Below are positions 21,534 through 57,025 of a DNA stretch of 64,000 nt, one piece after another. Where the stretch lies: IMG/VR virus record IMGVR_UViG_3300045199_000074. The stretch is one strand, 5' to 3'. Origin of the DNA: a virus. Positions within the stretch are counted from its first letter, which is position 1; each line of letters starts with the position of its first letter. The notes under the pieces are model-generated. The model did not search any database. It had not been told where the DNA came from and saw nothing but the letters and a program-made list of their open reading frames with translations. Position numbers and translations under genes: made by a program.

Positions 21534-22541
21534 TCACAACGAAAATACACCCAACGCATCTTTTACCTCTGAGAGCGTTTGTGCCGCTACATCACGTGCC
21601 TCCTTTGAACCCTGACGAATAATGTCTTTGAAGTCGATATCATTGACTGCGCGCTGGTCGCGAATGGGCATCATGATCCGTTCAAGGGATGTAATTAGTT
21701 CCTTCTTGATCGTGACGTCACCCAATCCACCCGCCCGATATCGTTTCTTCAGGTCTTCTACTTTCTCCTGGTCCATTTCGAAGGCGTCAAGGTACGAGAA
21801 CACTACGTTGCCCTCGACTTGGCCAGGATCACTGACGAGGAGATGATTGGGGTCGGTATACATCGCCATGACCTTGTCTTTTACCTCCTTCTGGCTGTCA
21901 TGCAGAAAGATGGCGTTACCAAGTGACTTGCTCGCTTTCGCTTTACCGTCAATTCCTGGAAGGCGAGTGACCTTGGACAGAAGGCTTTTCGGTGTCGGGA
22001 GAATTTCCCTGTTGCCTGCCCGGTTGATCTTCCTGGCAACTTCCTGAGCTAGCTCGATCATAGGTAGTTGATCATCTCCAACAGGGATGCAAGTGGCCTT
22101 GAATGCTGTAATGTCGGCGGCTTGCGATACTGGATAGCACAAGAAACCAGAAGGAATATCACGCTCAAAGTCTCGCATTTTAAGTTCATCGCGGATGGTC
22201 GGGTTTCGTTCCAGACGGGACACCGTAATGAAGTTCATATAGAGCATTGTCAACTCCGCGAGTTCTGGCACGGCTGATTGCAGGAATATGGTTGTCCTGC
22301 TGGGATCGAGGCCGATTGCAAGATAGTCCGAGACCACCTGCGGAATGGCGTCCCTGATCTTGGCCGTATTCTCGGCATTGTCAGTGTAGGCCTGCATATC
22401 GGCAATCATAACGAAGCTACGATATCCTTCATCCTGAAGACGAAGTCGTTGCTGCAACGATCCTGCGTAATGGCCGAGATGAAGAGGTCCAGTCGGACGG
22501 TCGCCAGTGAGTGCGATTGGGGCGATATTAATTGTAGACAT
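21534..22541 (-). CDS. trpS: Tryptophanyl-tRNA synthetase (TrpRS II-like)
   Basis: TGDRPTGPLHLGHY (HIGH), ADMQAYTD, YPVSQAADI, VPVG.DQ-type IPVGDDQLP, KASKSLGN (KMSKS variant). Confidence 0.96.
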   Translation of the reverse strand: MSTINIAPIALTGDRPTGPLHLGHYAGSLQQRLRLQDEGYRSFVMIADMQAYTDNAENTAKIRDAIPQVVSDYLAIGLDPSRTTIFLQSAVPELAELTMLYMNFITVSRLERNPTIRDELKMRDFERDIPSGFLCYPVSQAADITAFKATCIPVGDDQLPMIELAQEVARKINRAGNREILPTPKSLLSKVTRLPGIDGKAKASKSLGNAIFLHDSQKEVKDKVMAMYTDPNHLLVSDPGQVEGNVVFSYLDAFEMDQEKVEDLKKRYRAGGLGDVTIKKELITSLERIMMPIRDQRAVNDIDFKDIIRQGSKEARDVAAQTLSEVKDALGVFSL

Positions 22542-32397: not shown

Positions 32398-32403
32398 ACA
32401 CAT

Positions 32404-32430
32404 AAAAAACCCGCCTTTTAGGCGGGTTCT
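32404..32430 (-). terminator. Attenuator terminator upstream of the Ser/Gln tRNA operon
   Basis: agaacccgcc-taaaa-ggcgggtttttt ending 6 nt before tRNA-Ser(GCT). Confidence 0.9.
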
Positions 32431-32455
32431 GAAACCTTTTGATCTGATATGGAGG

Positions 32456-32548
32456 TCAGATATTTAGGTCAGTCACCGCGCACATCAACGCATTCGAGCT
32501 TGATGAACTCGATTGTCTTGATTGCTGTTGGGATGACTGAATAAACAT
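32456..32548 (-). CDS. Ser/Gln leader peptide MFIQSSQQQSRQSSSSSSNALMCAVTDLNI*
   Basis: GGAGA RBS 6 nt upstream; 14 of codons 4-18 are Ser (9) or Gln (5). Confidence 0.85.
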   Translation of the reverse strand: MFIQSSQQQSRQSSSSSSNALMCAVTDLNI

Positions 32549-32572
32549 TTTTAATCTCCGTGATCTTCATTT

Positions 32573-32601
32573 AAGATGAAGTATGTATTTACCAATGTCA
32601 A
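32573..32601 (-). promoter_or_regulatory. Sigma70-like promoter of the Ser/Gln operon
   Basis: TTGACA-N17-CATCTT. Confidence 0.6.
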
Positions 32602-32619: not shown

Positions 32620-33492
32620 TTACATTTTTATTTCCGGACTGTTGGCGTCGATCTCAACATCGCTGGATGCAGTATTATTTATGAGATGTGGTTTCGTTAG
32701 AATTGCTGCATTAAAAATGGCTAATCCTCCGACTGATCGATCATAAACGCCATCGATTCCTCTCTTTCGGGCCTGCAGATCGAAATCGTCTCTACCGATG
32801 ATAGACACTAGCCCGCTTTCTATCCATTTTTGATTGTCCTTATGATTTCTCAAGTCGAGTATCAAGGCCCCTTCTTTGATTGTGGTGACGATAACGGCTC
32901 CACCATTTTCGTCATCTGAAAATTCCGCATAGTTTGAGATTGCCAGTTCCACATCGTCAGCCACATAAAATGCGCGTCCAAAATAGCCTGTTCCAATAGA
33001 TGGTTTGATACCGTAATTCAGGATGTCTTCCGCATTTTCATTCGATGTCCCGTGATAAACTTCCCTACACGACCATCCAATTGCTCCTGAAGGAACTCCG
33101 TCATTCGGGCTGAGGGAGGCCAGCAAGATTGCTTGTTTGACGACATCAACATCGTCCCAAGTGAGATTTCCGCCGATGGAAGGTCCGCTGTCACTTGTAA
33201 GTTTTGGGAACTTATCCAATACATGTGGTAATAGCTGCATTGTGTGTGGATCAACGTAAGTGCCATGCGGCCCGTCTATTTTTACCTCGACGGTTTCGTA
33301 ATCCTCCAATGTATCCAGTTTTCGTTTTGGGCTACATTGATATCCGTACTTGTCGGCCTGGATCGATAATGACCATCCGTGATCCCACTTAATGGATGGG
33401 AATAAACGGCCGTCTTCTTCGGTTCTTTTAGTCATAAGCTCAAACTCGTAGTTTTCATGCTTCAAAATATGGAATAGTAATGAAACAATCAA
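32620..33492 (-). CDS. Two-domain hypothetical protein with a C-terminal PARP/ART-like (H-Y) domain
   Basis: VYHGTS...GYFGRAFYVADD...A..Y motif. Confidence 0.55.
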   Translation of the reverse strand: MIVSLLFHILKHENYEFELMTKRTEEDGRLFPSIKWDHGWSLSIQADKYGYQCSPKRKLDTLEDYETVEVKIDGPHGTYVDPHTMQLLPHVLDKFPKLTSDSGPSIGGNLTWDDVDVVKQAILLASLSPNDGVPSGAIGWSCREVYHGTSNENAEDILNYGIKPSIGTGYFGRAFYVADDVELAISNYAEFSDDENGGAVIVTTIKEGALILDLRNHKDNQKWIESGLVSIIGRDDFDLQARKRGIDGVYDRSVGGLAIFNAAILTKPHLINNTASSDVEIDANSPEIKM

Positions 33493-34923: not shown

Positions 34924-34952
34924 TTGACAGTTTCTTCGACCTAATGCATTTA
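34924..34952 (+). promoter_or_regulatory. Sigma70-like promoter of the Leu/Pro/His/Tyr operon
   Basis: TTGACA-N17-CATTTA. Confidence 0.6.
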
Positions 34953-34996
34953 TGGATAACACGACGAATTCACGTCGCCAATTTGAGGATAGTGAA

Positions 34997-35164
34997 ATGA
35001 CAACATCGGCACATACAGTACAGGGAAAGGTTGCGGCAGTTTCTGCTCGCGTCGCCCTGTCTCGTGCCTTGTCGGCACTACCTCATCTCCCACATTTGTT
35101 ACCACTCCCGTATTTGGGATGTGGTCAGCGGGCTGTATTGGCGACTGAAGGATACGCAAATTAA
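34997..35164 (+). CDS. Leu/Pro/His/Tyr leader peptide (55 aa; control run LPHLPHLLPLPYL at 35078-35116)
   Basis: GAGGA RBS 7 nt upstream of the ATG at 34997; 13 consecutive Leu/Pro/His/Tyr codons. Confidence 0.85.
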   Translation: MTTSAHTVQGKVAAVSARVALSRALSALPHLPHLLPLPYLGCGQRAVLATEGYAN

Positions 35165-35183
35165 GTAATCCTTCAATCCAACC

Positions 35184-35230
35184 AAGAAGAAACCCTCGCT
35201 GGCCACAAGCTACCGAGGGTTTCTTCTTTT
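35184..35230 (+). terminator. Attenuator terminator upstream of tRNA cluster 2
   Basis: Perfect 15-bp stem aagaagaaaccctcg / cgagggtttcttctt followed by tt. Confidence 0.9.
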
Positions 35231-35370
35231 GTGCGTCTGTATTTCCTCGTTAGAGGGTTCTGTTTATAACAGAATGATCTTTGAAATTGTGAGCAAGAAC
35301 AGTGCAAGCTGGCTTTGGATGTTGTGGCCGTCACCGCGATATTCTTTGGTGAGCTAGTTTGCGAAGAATT

Positions 35371-35454
35371 GGAGGGTTGCCCGAGAGGCCGAACGGGACG
35401 GACTGTAAATCCGTTGAGAAATCCGCGTTGGTTCGAATCCAACACCCTTCACCA
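35371..35454 (+). tRNA. tRNA-Tyr(GTA)
   Basis: acgga-ctGTAaa-tccgt, CCA. Confidence 0.95.
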
Positions 35455-35461
35455 ATTAAAT

Positions 35462-35544
35462 GTGGCAGTGGCGGAATAGGTAGACGCGGTGGATTCAAAA
35501 TCCATTGGGAAACCGTGAGAGTTCGAGTCTCTCCTGCCGCACCA
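35462..35544 (+). tRNA. tRNA-Leu(CAA)
   Basis: gtgga-ttCAAaa-tccat, CCA. Confidence 0.95.
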
Positions 35545-35622
35545 AAATGAATGTATCCGTCTGGGTTTAGAGTATTTAAATATTCAACCCAGACGGAGAA
35601 GAGAAAATGTAATCCGATCTTT

Positions 35623-35699
35623 CGGAGTGTAGCGCAGTCTGGTAGCGCACCTGCCTTGGGAGCAGGGGGTCGCAGGTTCGAATCCTGCCGTTCCGACCA
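35623..35699 (+). tRNA. tRNA-Pro(TGG)
   Basis: cctgc-ctTGGga-gcagg, C1 start, CCA. Confidence 0.95.
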
Positions 35700-35729
35700 T
35701 CGGATTACATTTTCTCTTCGGAGAAATAT

Positions 35730-35812
35730 GCGGTTATGGCGAAATTGGTAGACGCACCAGATTTAGGTTCTGGCGGGAAACCGTGGGGGTTCGAGTCCCT
35801 CTAACCGTACCA
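35730..35812 (+). tRNA. tRNA-Leu(TAG)
   Basis: ccaga-ttTAGgt-tctgg, CCA. Confidence 0.95.
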
Positions 35813-35828
35813 TCTTTTAATACTAATT

Positions 35829-36049
35829 GGGGATGCTCGCCTGGATTCGGTGTGGGCAGTTGCAAAAAACGTAGAACGCGACCGGGGTAAAACCCGGTCT
35901 TCGAAATATCTCAAGCACACGAGTTGTGGATGCACCGAAATAGCCAGAGAGGGCCGAGTAGGGAAGCGCGTTTCTCAAGCATTGAGGTAGCCTGTGGTAA
36001 TGCTCAGGTCCGAAGACAATCGCCGGTTCGAACCCGGTCATCTCCACCA
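35829..36049 (+). ncRNA. Short one-piece tmRNA-like RNA (221 nt)
   Basis: GGGGATG/CATCTCC acceptor with G3-U70, A discriminator and CCA; ctGGATTCG near the 5' end; T arm ccgg-ttcgaac-ccgg; long irregular helix 2. Confidence 0.7.
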
Positions 36050-36054
36050 TTTTC

Positions 36055-36146
36055 GGGGGACGCCAATAAGGATGGGCGGTTCTGTCACTCGGTTGTAACC
36101 CGAGTCCCTATGCGGCAAGCAGTTCAAATCTAGCCGTCCCCCACCA
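36055..36146 (+). ncRNA. Non-canonical tRNA-like RNA A (8-bp acceptor, GTA loop)
   Basis: gggggacg/cgtccccc + ACCA; actcgg-ttGTAac-ccgagt; T-loop ttcaaat. Confidence 0.65.
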
Positions 36147-36154
36147 TTTCGCAC

Positions 36155-36244
36155 GGGGAGTGCGTTAAGAAGGGTATGACAACCCTGGCAGGCCGTACAC
36201 CTGTCCCCTAGTGGCTACGGTAAAAATCCGTCCACTCCCCACCA
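36155..36244 (+). ncRNA. Non-canonical tRNA-like RNA B (8-bp acceptor, GTA loop, degenerate T-loop)
   Basis: ggggagtg/cactcccc + ACCA; gcagg-ccGTAca-cctgt; acgg-taaaaat-ccgt. Confidence 0.65.
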
Positions 36245-36310
36245 AATTTAAACTAACGGGCCGAGACCTGCTGCCTTAAGTGGCGCTGCTCGGCCCGTGA
36301 ACGAAGAATT

Positions 36311-36387
36311 CGGAGTATAGCGCAGCCTGGTAGCGCGATGGTTTTGGGAACCATAGGTCGCAGGTTCGAAGCCTGCTACTCCGACCA
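36311..36387 (+). tRNA. tRNA-Pro(TGG), second copy
   Basis: atggt-ttTGGga-accat, CCA. Confidence 0.93.
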
Positions 36388-36394
36388 ACTAAAT

Positions 36395-36498
36395 GGCAGG
36401 GCCCTGACGTATCCTAGGTAACATTCGTCGGAGTCGGCGTACTAATCAAAGATTACGGATTGATCATCCGCTGAGATCAAGTGCCTGTCCTGCCACCA
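36395..36498 (+). ncRNA. Unknown structured RNA with an 8-bp terminal stem and 3' ACCA
   Basis: ggcagggc/gtcctgcc + ACCA; internal hairpins; no T-loop or D-loop consensus. Confidence 0.5.
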
Positions 36499-36541
36499 GT
36501 TTCGGGCTATTCCTTAGAAAGATTAGCTAGTCATTAAACGT

Positions 36542-36616
36542 GCCGTAGTAGCTCAATGGTTAGAGCGCTGGATTGTGGCTCCAGAGACGGTGGTTCGACT
36601 CCACCCTTCGGTTCCA
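36542..36616 (+). tRNA. tRNA-His(GTG)
   Basis: ctgga-ttGTGgc-tccag, CCA; no encoded G-1; U at the discriminator. Confidence 0.9.
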
Positions 36617-36657
36617 ATACATATGAGTATCCGCTATAGATAAATCAGCGGAAATGT

Positions 36658-36741
36658 GCGGCTGTGGTGGAATGGCAGACACGCAGCGTTGAGGTCGCTG
36701 TGGGGTAACCCGTGGAAGTTCGAATCTTCTCAGCCGCACCA
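36658..36741 (+). tRNA. tRNA-Leu(GAG)
   Basis: cagcg-ttGAGgt-cgctg, CCA. Confidence 0.95.
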
Positions 36742-36784
36742 AGAAACAACAAAACACTATATATCATGTTCCTATTATTAGTTT

Positions 36785-36868
36785 GTGGGCTTGGCGAAAT
36801 TGGTAGACGCGCCGGACTTAAAATGCGGTTCTTAATGAGTACGAGTTCGATCCTCGTAGCCCACACCA
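36785..36868 (+). tRNA. tRNA-Leu(TAA)
   Basis: Loop ctTAAaa, class II, CCA; one anticodon-stem mismatch. Confidence 0.9.
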
Positions 36869-36885
36869 CTATTAACCCTTCAAAT

Positions 36886-36980
36886 GCGGCCGTGGCGGAA
36901 TTTAGTATACGCGCTGGGTTCAGGTCCCAGTGGAGAGCTTGCAACTCTCTGTGCAGGTGCAAGTCCTGCCGTCCGCACCA
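36886..36980 (+). tRNA. tRNA-Leu(CAG), atypical T-loop (tgcaagt)
   Basis: ctggg-ttCAGgt-cccag, long variable arm, CCA. Confidence 0.88.
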
Positions 36981-37020: not shown

Positions 37021-37110
37021 TAAAGGCCGCCTTGGTTTGTCCCCCTATGCCTTGGTATGGGCATTTCGTTGCGTTTGATTTGTCTCATCCTTAAAACCGA
37101 GAGAATCTAG
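37021..37110. repeat. Diverged repeat, copy 1 (copy 2 at 56880-56958)
   Basis: Shared gccgcct..tttgtccc..gccttg.tat.ggcatt.cgttgcgtttgattt.tct and gagaatcta. Confidence 0.8.
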
Positions 37111-56111: not shown

Positions 56112-56139
56112 TTGACTATTTCTTTTAAAACTATATAAA
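56112..56139 (+). promoter_or_regulatory. Sigma70-like promoter upstream of Arg/Phe leader 1
   Basis: TTGACT-N16-TATAAA. Confidence 0.55.
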
Positions 56140-56163
56140 TTTGTGTCTGTAAAAGGGAATAAT

Positions 56164-56250
56164 ATGTCTGTTTATTTGATCAATCGTCGGCGATTTAGTG
56201 TTGTTGGACATCCGGTGGGATGGCTTCCAAAGCGCTTGCGCATGACATGA
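56164..56250 (+). CDS. Arg/Phe leader peptide 1 MSVYLINRRRFSVVGHPVGWLPKRLRMT*
   Basis: AAGGGA RBS; CGT CGG CGA TTT run and later CGC x2; followed by a terminator. Confidence 0.7.
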   Translation: MSVYLINRRRFSVVGHPVGWLPKRLRMT

Positions 56251-56273
56251 TCTAGACAGATCACTGTTTAAGC

Positions 56274-56319
56274 AAAGGCTGGGGCTTCTGCCGGAAGGTG
56301 TGAGGCCTCAGCCTTTTTT
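56274..56319 (+). terminator. Terminator after Arg/Phe leader 1
   Basis: 15-bp stem aaaggctggggcttc / gaggcctcagccttt followed by ttt. Confidence 0.85.
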
Positions 56320-56343
56320 ATTGTCTGAAACTTGGAGAATGAT

Positions 56344-56454
56344 ATGCGACGACGACGGCGATTAAAGGTTCGATTTATAACCCAACATGCTGACTTTATT
56401 AACTTGGGATACCGTTTCCTGAGGCGATATTTTACACCTGTTGTTTATTCCTAA
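56344..56454 (+). CDS. Arg/Phe-rich leader-like ORF 2 MRRRRRLKVRFITQHADFINLGYRFLRRYFTPVVYS*
   Basis: GGAG RBS 6 nt upstream; CGA CGA CGA CGG CGA; 9 Arg and 4 Phe in 36 aa. Confidence 0.7.
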   Translation: MRRRRRLKVRFITQHADFINLGYRFLRRYFTPVVYS

Positions 56455-56490
56455 CTTATTGAAATAATTCACGTTTTTGTATTTTTATAG

Positions 56491-56518
56491 TTGACGCCGT
56501 TATTTCTTTGTGTAATAT
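56491..56518 (+). promoter_or_regulatory. Possible internal promoter directly upstream of tRNA-Phe
   Basis: TTGACG-N16-TAATAT. Confidence 0.45.
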
Positions 56519-56551
56519 TTAAATCATCGAAAGAACGAAAGAGCTTTCTTA

Positions 56552-56627
56552 GCCATTGTAGCTCAGTTGGTAGAGCACCGCACTGAAGATGCGGGTGTCG
56601 GCGGTTCGAATCCGCCCGATGGCACCA
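56552..56627 (+). tRNA. tRNA-Phe(GAA)
   Basis: ccgca-ctGAAga-tgcgg, 76 nt, CCA. Confidence 0.96.
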
Positions 56628-56679
56628 GATCTTTCCTTTTGGTTTTTGGACGTTTCCAAGGCGTCCTTAAATTAAGATT

Positions 56680-56757
56680 GCGTTTGTAGCTCAGCCGGAA
56701 AAGAGCGTCGGTCTACGAAACCGAAGGTCACAGGTTCGAATCCTGTCAAACGCACCA
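56680..56757 (+). tRNA. tRNA-Arg(ACG)
   Basis: tcggt-ctACGaa-accga, CCA. Confidence 0.96.
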
Positions 56758-56760
56758 TTT

Positions 56761-56837
56761 GCGACTGTAGCTCAATGGACAGAGCATCTCGCTCCGAACG
56801 GGAAGGTAGGTGAGTTCGAATCTCCTCAGTCGCACCA
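56761..56837 (+). tRNA. tRNA-Arg(CCG)
   Basis: tctcg-ctCCGaa-cggga, CCA. Confidence 0.95.
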
Positions 56838-56842
56838 TCATC

Positions 56843-57025
56843 TCAGCTGGGCAGTGCTTCTTTTAAAAATCCGTGAGTATAAACGCCGCCTCGTTTGTCC
56901 CTCCGCGCCTTGATATCGGCATTCCGTTGCGTTTGATTTATCTTAATCAGAGAATCTACCAAGAATTCGAATGAAGCACAAAGCTCGTGTCCCTCCGATC
57001 GACTTTCACGGTTATGTGTTTTCAA
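56843..57025 (-). CDS. Small hypothetical protein containing repeat copy 2 (56880-56958)
   Basis: 60-aa ORF; a disrupted paralog lies at about 37000-37130. Confidence 0.45.
   Translation of the reverse strand: MKTHNRESRSEGHELCASFEFLVDSLIKINQTQRNADIKARRDKRGGVYTHGFLKEALPS

Follow-up and report, generated by a model that had tools for sequence, protein, structure and literature searches.

A control region in front of three tRNA genes (tRNA-Phe(GAA), tRNA-Arg(ACG) and tRNA-Arg(CCG)) in the IMG/VR record IMGVR_UViG_3300045199_000074 appears to couple the output of these genes to the speed at which ribosomes read the codons that the tRNAs serve; extra tRNA is probably made when Arg and Phe control codons are read slowly. 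The record, the whole 64,000-nt stretch analyzed here, is referred to as the window. From 5' to 3' the region holds a predicted promoter (P1), a short open reading frame (ORF) with the control codons (leader 1), a switchable intrinsic terminator (T1), a second short ORF (ORF2), an IHF-like box and a second predicted promoter (P2). The model which we favor, with modest confidence, is that P2 would provide a basal supply, the attenuator at leader 1 would add a boost upon slow decoding, and ORF2 would serve as a second checkpoint for this boost.

Conservation was followed in an alignment of 12 orthologous loci (window, L002, L006, L007, L008, L009, L151 and L164-L168) with a GC content of 43-67% and a mean column identity of 56%. 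Identity is highest at the control codons and the protector hairpin, in the first 11 codons of ORF2, and at the IHF-like box and the -35 box of P2, and falls between them. The number of promoter-like sites in a scan is by itself not above chance (9 versus 6.3±2.4); the sites at 56112 and 56491 are kept in relatives, and a TTGAC box stands at the place corresponding to P1 in most orthologues. The initial annotation of the window, made from its sequence, had reported the codons CGT CGG CGA TTT and two CGC codons in leader 1, and they are all present, the CGC codons as codons 24 and 26. CGA TTT is invariant in 12/12 loci, and by a rough count TTT makes up only ~8-13% of Phe codons in long ORFs of the GC-rich loci; the Arg codon frequencies of these loci were disregarded, as spurious ORFs enter into them. 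The leader stop codon is in frame at a distance that is conserved among loci.

The structures downstream of the control codons are also maintained. The 15-bp terminator already noted after leader 1 was found again, extended by 4 bp beyond a bulge, and 12 of its pairs show double changes, a covariation score reached by 0/500 shuffles. The protector hairpin is paired in 93% of alignment cells, with 5 doubly changed pairs and a score again met by 0/500 shuffles, and the antiterminator in 85% of cells, compared with 38-60% when the pairing is slid. The slid controls matter because related sequences can beat covariation shuffles without any structure, and they agree. When transcripts cut just 5' of the terminator 3' arm were folded under a ribosome mask, the 5' arm of the terminator was predicted, in all 12 loci, to be sequestered with a probability of 0.69-0.97 for a ribosome on CGA or TTT, as against 0.06-0.36 for one on the leader stop codon. 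The predicted outcome is antitermination for a stall at codons 8-11 and termination once the ribosome has passed codons 14-16, which in the window (13-nt mask) is the switch point, just beyond the Phe codon. The proposal that leader 1 samples all four CGN codons plus Phe is consequently true of its composition but not of its sensing window, which comprises CGT, CGG, CGA and TTT only, as CGC codons 24 and 26 lie past the point at which the switch flips. Shuffled leaders gave equally high sequestration in 0/150 cases for the window and four close relatives and in 3/150 for L007. The antiterminator pairs suggested earlier (cttcc/aagc with gctt/ggaag) are possible, but this register is less stable: -29.8 kcal/mol with those pairs forced versus -37.2 kcal/mol for 56209-56227 with 56281-56297. 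Judged by computed folding and by the covariation of terminator and protector, leader 1 very likely functions as an attenuator.

ORF2 was described beforehand as an ORF with a GGAG ribosome-binding site (RBS), an MRRRRR start and four Phe codons, all of which are present in the window; its start codon is followed by CGA CGA CGA CGG CGA. ATG plus four CGN codons occurs once in the 64-kb window against 0.02 occurrences expected from shuffles. RBS and Arg run are kept in 11/12 loci, all 11 occurrences of CGA TTT, spread over 10/12 loci, are in frame despite indels, and substitutions in the Arg run remain Arg or Phe except in L167. In the Phe/Arg operon of Bosea RAC05, which has an extra tRNA-Arg(UCU), AGA is found in both leader 1 and ORF2. 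Only the first Phe codon is conserved; the remainder of ORF2 and its stop position vary (13 to 49 codons), so not the peptide but the act of translation is the product. As ORF2 starts 25-43 nt past the start of the T1 U-tract and has no promoter of its own, it is present on RNA only after read-through of T1. Judged by these patterns ORF2 is very likely translated. The statement that no intrinsic terminator follows it was borne out: there is only a modest hairpin (H2), and no second terminator is conserved 3' of ORF2 across the 12 loci, weak alternative hairpins with U-rich tracts being seen in L007, L166 and L167. In AT-rich relatives H2, whose position is conserved, shows 81% pairing and a degree of covariation. 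The two-tier sensor proposed in the initial annotation is therefore plausible, since leader 1 behaves as an attenuator in silico in 12/12 loci and selection maintains ORF2 as an Arg/Phe-codon ORF that is translated, but the mode of action of ORF2 is inferred, since neither a second intrinsic terminator nor a consistent Rho-site composition was found. Two other possibilities for ORF2 of the Phe/Arg operon were discarded: the CGA run as a frame-independent (ACG)n RNA motif, rejected because Arg is preserved in the ATG frame when bases change and indels do not put CGA TTT out of frame, and base pairing between ORF2 and the -35 region of P2, which is not conserved.

P2 is conserved as well. Its -35 TTGAC is invariant in 12/12 loci, its spacing and CAT start motif are conserved, and the IHF-like box with its T-rich tract lies 39-40 bp upstream of the -35 box in 12/12 loci. 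Compared with the IHF consensus TAAnnnnTTGATW (PMC10950094), the box is exact in L006, L007 and L165, has one mismatch in most other loci, the window among them, and two in L167. The pattern of box plus TTGAC occurs exactly four times in the related plasmid pRlX5 (1.32 Mb), each time at a tRNA operon (reversed control 0); in Mesorhizobium sp. SP-1A the same four operons account for 4/7 genome matches, with 0-2 matches overall in reversed controls. The spacing between box and promoter deviates in the Bosea Ala/Asn/Ile/Met operons. IHF alpha and beta are encoded by the SP-1A chromosome, and two divergent HU/IHF-family proteins by each of four megaplasmids tested; those scanned (SP-1A and pRlX5) score below the IHF and HU equivalog cut-offs. 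With such conservation and an IHF-like box in 12/12 loci the promoter-like site at 56491 is not a chance match but part of the design, and P2 is very probably a real promoter, its activity being read from conservation. The earlier caveat that it could bypass both leaders is a real one, but P2 cannot make the leaders irrelevant, because ORF2 needs T1 read-through to reach RNA and is conserved nevertheless.

Table 1. Features of the Phe/Arg control region, other tRNA units of the window and plasmid HU/IHF-family genes.
Feature	Position	Strand	Remarks
P1, predicted sigma-70-type promoter	56112..56139	+	-35 TTGACT; best -10 TATAAA 56134-56139; start predicted near 56146
RBS of leader 1	56153..56158	+	AAGGGA; anti-Shine-Dalgarno duplex -5.5 kcal/mol
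Leader 1	56164..56250	+	28 codons; CGT CGG CGA TTT at 56185-56196 (codons 8-11)
Protector hairpin (segments 1:2)	56204..56230	+	pairing and covariation
Antiterminator helix (segments 2:3)	56209..56297	+	encloses inner stems over leader stop
Intrinsic terminator T1 (segments 3:4) with U-tract	56274..56322	+	lower stem 56274-56288 with 56302-56316; ~-30 kcal/mol and covariation; U-tract 56314-56322
RBS of ORF2	56334..56337	+	GGAG; anti-Shine-Dalgarno duplex -6.4 kcal/mol
ORF2 (leader 2)	56344..56454	+	Arg run codons 2-6; CGA TTT codons 10-11
Hairpin H2, 3' of ORF2 control codons	56397..56429 (core 56403-56423)	+	putative role only
IHF-like box, candidate	56452..56464	+	one mismatch to consensus; then T-rich tract to 56490
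P2, predicted promoter	56491..56530	+	-35 TTGACG, 17-bp spacer, -10 AATATT (xATAxT type); predicted start at C/A step 56525/56526
tRNA cluster Phe/Arg/Arg	56552-56837	+	tRNA gene calls
tRNA-Phe(GAA)	56552..56627	+
tRNA-Arg(ACG)	56680..56757	+
tRNA-Arg(CCG)	56761..56837	+
Sister unit Ser/Gln	32398..32601	-	promoter, leader 32548-32456, terminator; before seven Ser/Gln tRNA genes; no P2
tRNA cluster Ser/Gln	32397-31149	-	tRNA gene calls
Sister unit Leu/Pro/His/Tyr	34924..35231	+	promoter, leader from ~34997, terminator; before nine tRNA genes; no P2 motif
tRNA cluster Tyr/Leu/Pro/His	35371-36980	+	tRNA gene calls
HU/IHF-family genes	G001:C2:1113090, 1181604; W01:1252563, 1301785; also W02, W04

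The Phe/Arg unit is one of a set. In SP-1A contig 2 and in pRlX5 the tRNA genes are arranged in seven operons each, covering all 20 amino acids, with a leader and a terminator before each: Ser/Gln; Tyr/Leu/Pro/His; Phe/Arg(CGN); Trp/Thr/Cys/Arg(AGA); Lys, which in pRlX5 additionally holds Arg(CCU); Glu/Asp; and a large Asn/Val/Gly/Ala/Met/Ile/Thr operon. P2 is found at four of the seven and ORF2 at three, the other three operons being without the box-plus-P2 pattern. Fifteen of the 16 leaders score best for their cognate operon, and the SP-1A assignment of leaders to operons is the best of 5040 permutations. The match extends to isoacceptors, as the leader of the tRNA-Arg(UCU) operon uses AGA and that of the Phe/Arg operon CGN, and the leaders favor the wobble-read codons TGT, CAT, TAT and GAT even in GC-rich pRlX5. 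The ORF2s of the Glu/Asp operon (rich in Asp and Glu) and of the Asn/Val/Gly/Ala operons also match their own operons; in the large operon the cognate patch follows a few acidic codons. The window itself contains two sister units (Table 1), and in the Ser/Gln unit the terminator ends ~12 nt before the first tRNA. The SP-1A chromosome has 46 tRNA genes, a full set with Phe(GAA), Arg(ACG) and Arg(CCG) among them, and none of the 46 is preceded by a terminator and a leader of cognate codons, which is why we regard the plasmid tRNA set as a gated spare. On plasmids of Methylorubrum AM1, Acidiphilium and Burkholderia M701, no units of leader and terminator could be clearly recognized in front of the tRNA genes. 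The Tyr/Leu/Pro/His leader (pRlX5 L008; window 34997-35060) has a long first half rich in Ala, Val, Gly, Asn and Thr which resembles the large-operon leader, a hint of fusion or duplication. In the SP-1A large operon a further ORF, which holds a CGA run, may begin right at the P2 start site.

The mechanism which we propose is as follows. P2, ~26 nt before tRNA-Phe, would give leader-independent, probably basal and IHF-modulated output, and transcripts from P1 would normally end at T1. With active tRNA-Arg(ICG), tRNA-Arg(CCG) or tRNA-Phe in short supply, a ribosome would linger on CGT CGG CGA TTT and cover segment 1, the 2:3 helix would take the 5' arm of the terminator and RNA polymerase would read through. 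The read-through RNA would expose ORF2, whose first 11 codons would re-test the same tRNAs, and a ribosome parked there would, together with H2, shield a polymerase paused at the IHF-like box from factor-dependent (Rho-type) termination. With the ribosome at ORF2 codon 11 and the polymerase at the box, ~22-32 nt are computed to be unpaired in the 11 intact loci, and Rho normally needs more unpaired RNA than this. A ribosome that finished ORF2 and left would free more RNA, and leaky read-through would be terminated. Two leaders in series would in this way form an AND gate on the boost added to P2. Such a gate is coherent, because IHF can block read-through transcription (PMC10950094) and ribosomes stalled on upstream ORFs shield Rho/rut sites in tnaC and cruR (PMC12360218). 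A factor-dependent checkpoint at ORF2 is a tentative proposal, to which we give somewhat less than an even chance.

The most likely signal is the loss of functional tRNA through cleavage, 3' modification, under-modification or dilution, and uncharged tRNA would trigger the leaders as well. Loss is the likelier signal because extra tRNA helps little in amino-acid starvation, and because the leaders resolve isoacceptors and favor weakly decoded wobble codons. Bacterial defence frequently targets tRNAs (PMC10264068, PMC12409363). Loss of TadA should also induce the Phe/Arg unit, though a specific inosine sensor is unlikely. Taken to its full extent, the reading would be that of an alphaproteobacterial megaplasmid family with a complete redundant tRNA set, whose seven operons are audited via codon-matched leaders; at three of them a serial intrinsic attenuator and a factor-dependent checkpoint at an IHF roadblock would stand over a basal promoter, and the result would be isoacceptor-resolved restocking of lost tRNAs, for example after attack by tRNA-targeting toxins or defence nucleases. 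We consider this possible and put it forward tentatively.

Several observations weigh against this interpretation. The covariation of the antiterminator is not above that of shuffles, and both of its arms are also constrained by the protector and terminator stems; the leader-shuffle control is weaker in GC-rich loci, where 5-29/150 shuffles score as high. Ribosome-free RNA also adopts the antiterminator in several loci, so the switch depends on coupling and kinetics. ORF2 is degenerate in L167, and in pRlX5 its Phe codon is lost. H2 is energetically unremarkable (folding z -0.5 in the window) and is not a typical intrinsic terminator, and no consistent C-rich rut-like tract is found 3' of ORF2: an excess of C over G is clear in 2/12 loci, with C/G counts of 16/15 in the window, 36/18 in pRlX5 and 36/22 in Bosea RAC05. 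Among the sister operons, that of Lys has P2 but no Lys-rich ORF2, and the large-operon ORF2 opens with Asp codons which that operon does not serve. If P2 is strong, the leaders would alter output only modestly. Matches in ant metatranscriptomes are assembled contigs, some of several kb, which are DNA-like and carry no start sites, ends or levels. As to the acidic start (GAC/GAG/GAT) of the large-operon ORF2, in an operon without Asp or Glu tRNA, it was seen in L143 (G001:C2 ~1063780), L130, L150 and L154; a GAC-rich start is common to the ORF2s of other operons.

The same elements could be arranged differently, and the strongest of the alternatives, which we nevertheless hold to be unlikely, makes P2 the main promoter, held off by IHF or a plasmid IHF-like protein until read-through from P1 dislodges it; most induced tRNA would then start at P2, and ORF2 would tune how far the P1 polymerase reaches. 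The box 39-40 bp before the -35, the T-tract over the UP-element region and the restriction to four operons are in accordance with such a relay, as are the two HU/IHF-family proteins encoded by each of the four plasmids tested and the finding that read-through transcription lowers IHF binding at datA (PMC10950094). The plasmid proteins, however, lie below the IHF cut-offs, and the spacing differs in the Bosea operons mentioned above. Moreover, RNA polymerase loses its coupling to a ribosome that stalls and should then pass a roadblock less well, not better, which makes the cognate slow codons in ORF2 hard to explain by a relay. Somewhat less likely again is that leader 1 is the sole regulator of transcription, and that the ribosome on ORF2 protects or processes the read-through precursor or, with H2, forms a weak pause or terminator without Rho. 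A rut-like composition is indeed not seen in 10/12 loci, and L007, L166 and L167 have their weak hairpins followed by U-rich tracts, but no such second terminator is conserved across loci, and protection of the precursor may be unnecessary because RNase P cuts mature tRNA 5' ends whatever the leader.

It had also been suggested that ORF2 acts on inosine-dependent decoding of CGA. If the CGA-rich leaders specifically sensed the TadA activity that forms inosine-34 on tRNA-Arg(ACG), this would account for CGA being invariant in leader 1 and dominant in ORF2; the tRNA retains the CUACGAA loop, and the plasmids, none of which was found to carry tadA among those tested, would rely on the host enzyme. 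We consider this idea very improbable, as TTT and CGG, neither of them inosine-dependent, are nearly as conserved, CGA is used in both Lys-operon leaders too, the wobble-read codons of other leaders suggest that leaders in general use whichever codon is decoded most weakly, and more unedited tRNA is no cure for a TadA shortage. That practically every tRNA transcript comes from P2, the leaders being vestiges or due to chance, is hardly credible: P2 does stand directly before tRNA-Phe in its conserved form in 12/12 loci, and a TTGAC box is often found about as far from host tRNA genes, but loci with a mean column identity of 56% all the same keep the control codons, the covarying stems and an ORF2 without a promoter, and three sister operons have the leader route alone.

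The Phe/Arg unit resembles the trpL, hisL, pheL, thrL and ilvGMEDA leaders in its short translated leader with a cluster of control codons, in 1:2, 2:3 and 3:4 pairings which exclude one another, in its intrinsic terminator and in a stall which means ON. At the level of sequence and folding it has the parts of trp/his/thr-type attenuators: a leader ORF with an RBS 3' of a promoter, matching codons, a terminator and a stall-favored antiterminator. Whereas these attenuators regulate biosynthesis or synthetase genes, the Phe/Arg unit regulates the tRNA genes which read its control codons, and for this reason we regard it as a variant and not as a member of a named family. It also differs from amino-acid leaders in that its codon choice follows isoacceptors and in having a second leader and a second promoter downstream of the terminator. 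Rfam leader-peptide families (Trp, His, Phe, Thr, Leu and others) gave no match in the region, also at a relaxed threshold, and only tRNA matches reached the gathering threshold; nor was there an Rfam match to a T-box riboswitch (stem I specifier loop, T-box bulge). In E. coli pheM-pheST a Phe-codon leader controls the synthetase by sensing charged tRNA-Phe, which likewise places a Phe-codon leader on a component of the translation machinery; it differs in controlling a synthetase, with a single leader and no Arg input. In ilvGMEDA, too, an attenuator goes together with IHF binding in the promoter-attenuator region (cited in PMC10950094). ORF2 is closer to tnaC, speFL/orf34, cruR and mgtL (PMC12360218, PMC6386406), short ORFs without an intrinsic terminator in which the position of the ribosome decides on premature termination, and orf34 uses tandem Arg codons (same sources). 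These systems have mapped rut sites and mostly stall through nascent peptide and ligand, in contrast to ORF2, which has a non-conserved peptide tail and stop, no consistent rut-like tract and a putative role for Rho. The phage and plasmid tRNA arrays proposed as back-up against tRNA-targeting defences (PMC10264068) likewise place a duplicate of the host tRNA set on a mobile replicon; the abstract of that paper describes no attenuation or demand sensing, and the megaplasmid tRNAs are divided among seven gated operons.

The usual view is that tRNA genes are controlled at the promoter (ppGpp/DksA, Fis), without feedback from how fast codons are decoded. If placed on such genes, a leader-peptide attenuator would be a direct homeostatic sensor of functional tRNA; no published example was found in the literature searched, whose coverage excludes most subscription journals. 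ORF2, the IHF-like box and P2 would be a layer added beyond the leader 1 attenuator. The system is also relevant to the old question of what mobile elements gain from their tRNA arrays, since a gate that opens on slow decoding points to on-demand rescue and not to constant codon compensation. It is directly testable, because replicons with this design belong to isolated strains: Rhizobium leguminosarum TP16 (pRlX5), Mesorhizobium sp. SP-1A, Bosea sp. RAC05 and ANAM02.

The window is most plausibly part of a Rhizobiales megaplasmid. Its sequence is identical to part of a 1.0-Mb metagenome contig, and its gene products include gyrA, a ClpA/B-like ATPase, a strawberry-notch helicase, PcfJ, a TraR/DksA finger and a class-I (Trp/Tyr) tRNA synthetase. 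The nearest genome is contig 2 (1.19 Mb) of SP-1A, with a GyrA 93% identical to that of the window; its chromosome (contig 1) has a separate gyrA. Remoter relatives are pRlX5 and two plasmids of Bosea. It is this contig size, gene content and set of relatives on which the assignment is based. Public runs carrying the stretch are mostly ant metagenomes. When the region was compared with plasmids and phages by DNA BLAST, matches were confined to tRNA bodies, a genome scan with the 204-amino-acid protein encoded upstream gave no match, and a metagenome pattern scan (120 matches) was too unspecific and was left unused.

Some further features of the tRNA operons and their surroundings were observed. 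In the window tRNA-Phe(GAA) has G at position 37 (56588), as in L002 and L009, instead of the usual A, which is found in L006; this may alter modification or nuclease sensitivity. The spacer between tRNA-Phe and tRNA-Arg(ACG) (56630-56678) is an imperfect inverted repeat, whose hairpin form but not sequence recurs, by eye, in L002, L006 and L009. A search for an intrinsic terminator 3' of the Phe/Arg operon found none; a 51-nt repeat, 84% identical, lies 3' of both plus-strand tRNA operons (37035-37085 and 56893-56943) and may be an end or processing signal. A gene for a TraR/DksA C4 zinc-finger protein of 72 amino acids (PF01258; 54660-54878, minus strand) is kept ~1-3 kb upstream of the Phe/Arg operon in all close and mid-distance relatives. 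TraR-like proteins act on stable-RNA promoters, and this one could influence P1 or P2. Directly 3' of the operon an AbiEii-family gene (PF08843) is found in five relatives (L007:7667-8587, L164:17167-18078, L165, L166 and L167), with an AbiEi-type partner annotated in two loci; on the window's own contig an AbiEii gene lies ~9 kb from the operon (L001:20426 onward, beyond the window). AbiEii-type nucleotidyltransferase toxins can modify tRNA ends, so the product of this gene might inactivate tRNA. The gene at 32620-33492 (minus strand), which immediately precedes the promoter of the Ser/Gln leader, has a marginal PARP/ADP-ribosyltransferase match (PF00644, 27.1 bits), and the class-I Trp/Tyr tRNA synthetase (PF00579) is encoded at 21534-22541 (minus strand). 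Finally, several CCA-ending structured stretches, called neither by ARAGORN nor by Rfam, lie among the Tyr/Leu/Pro/His tRNA genes (35830-36500).

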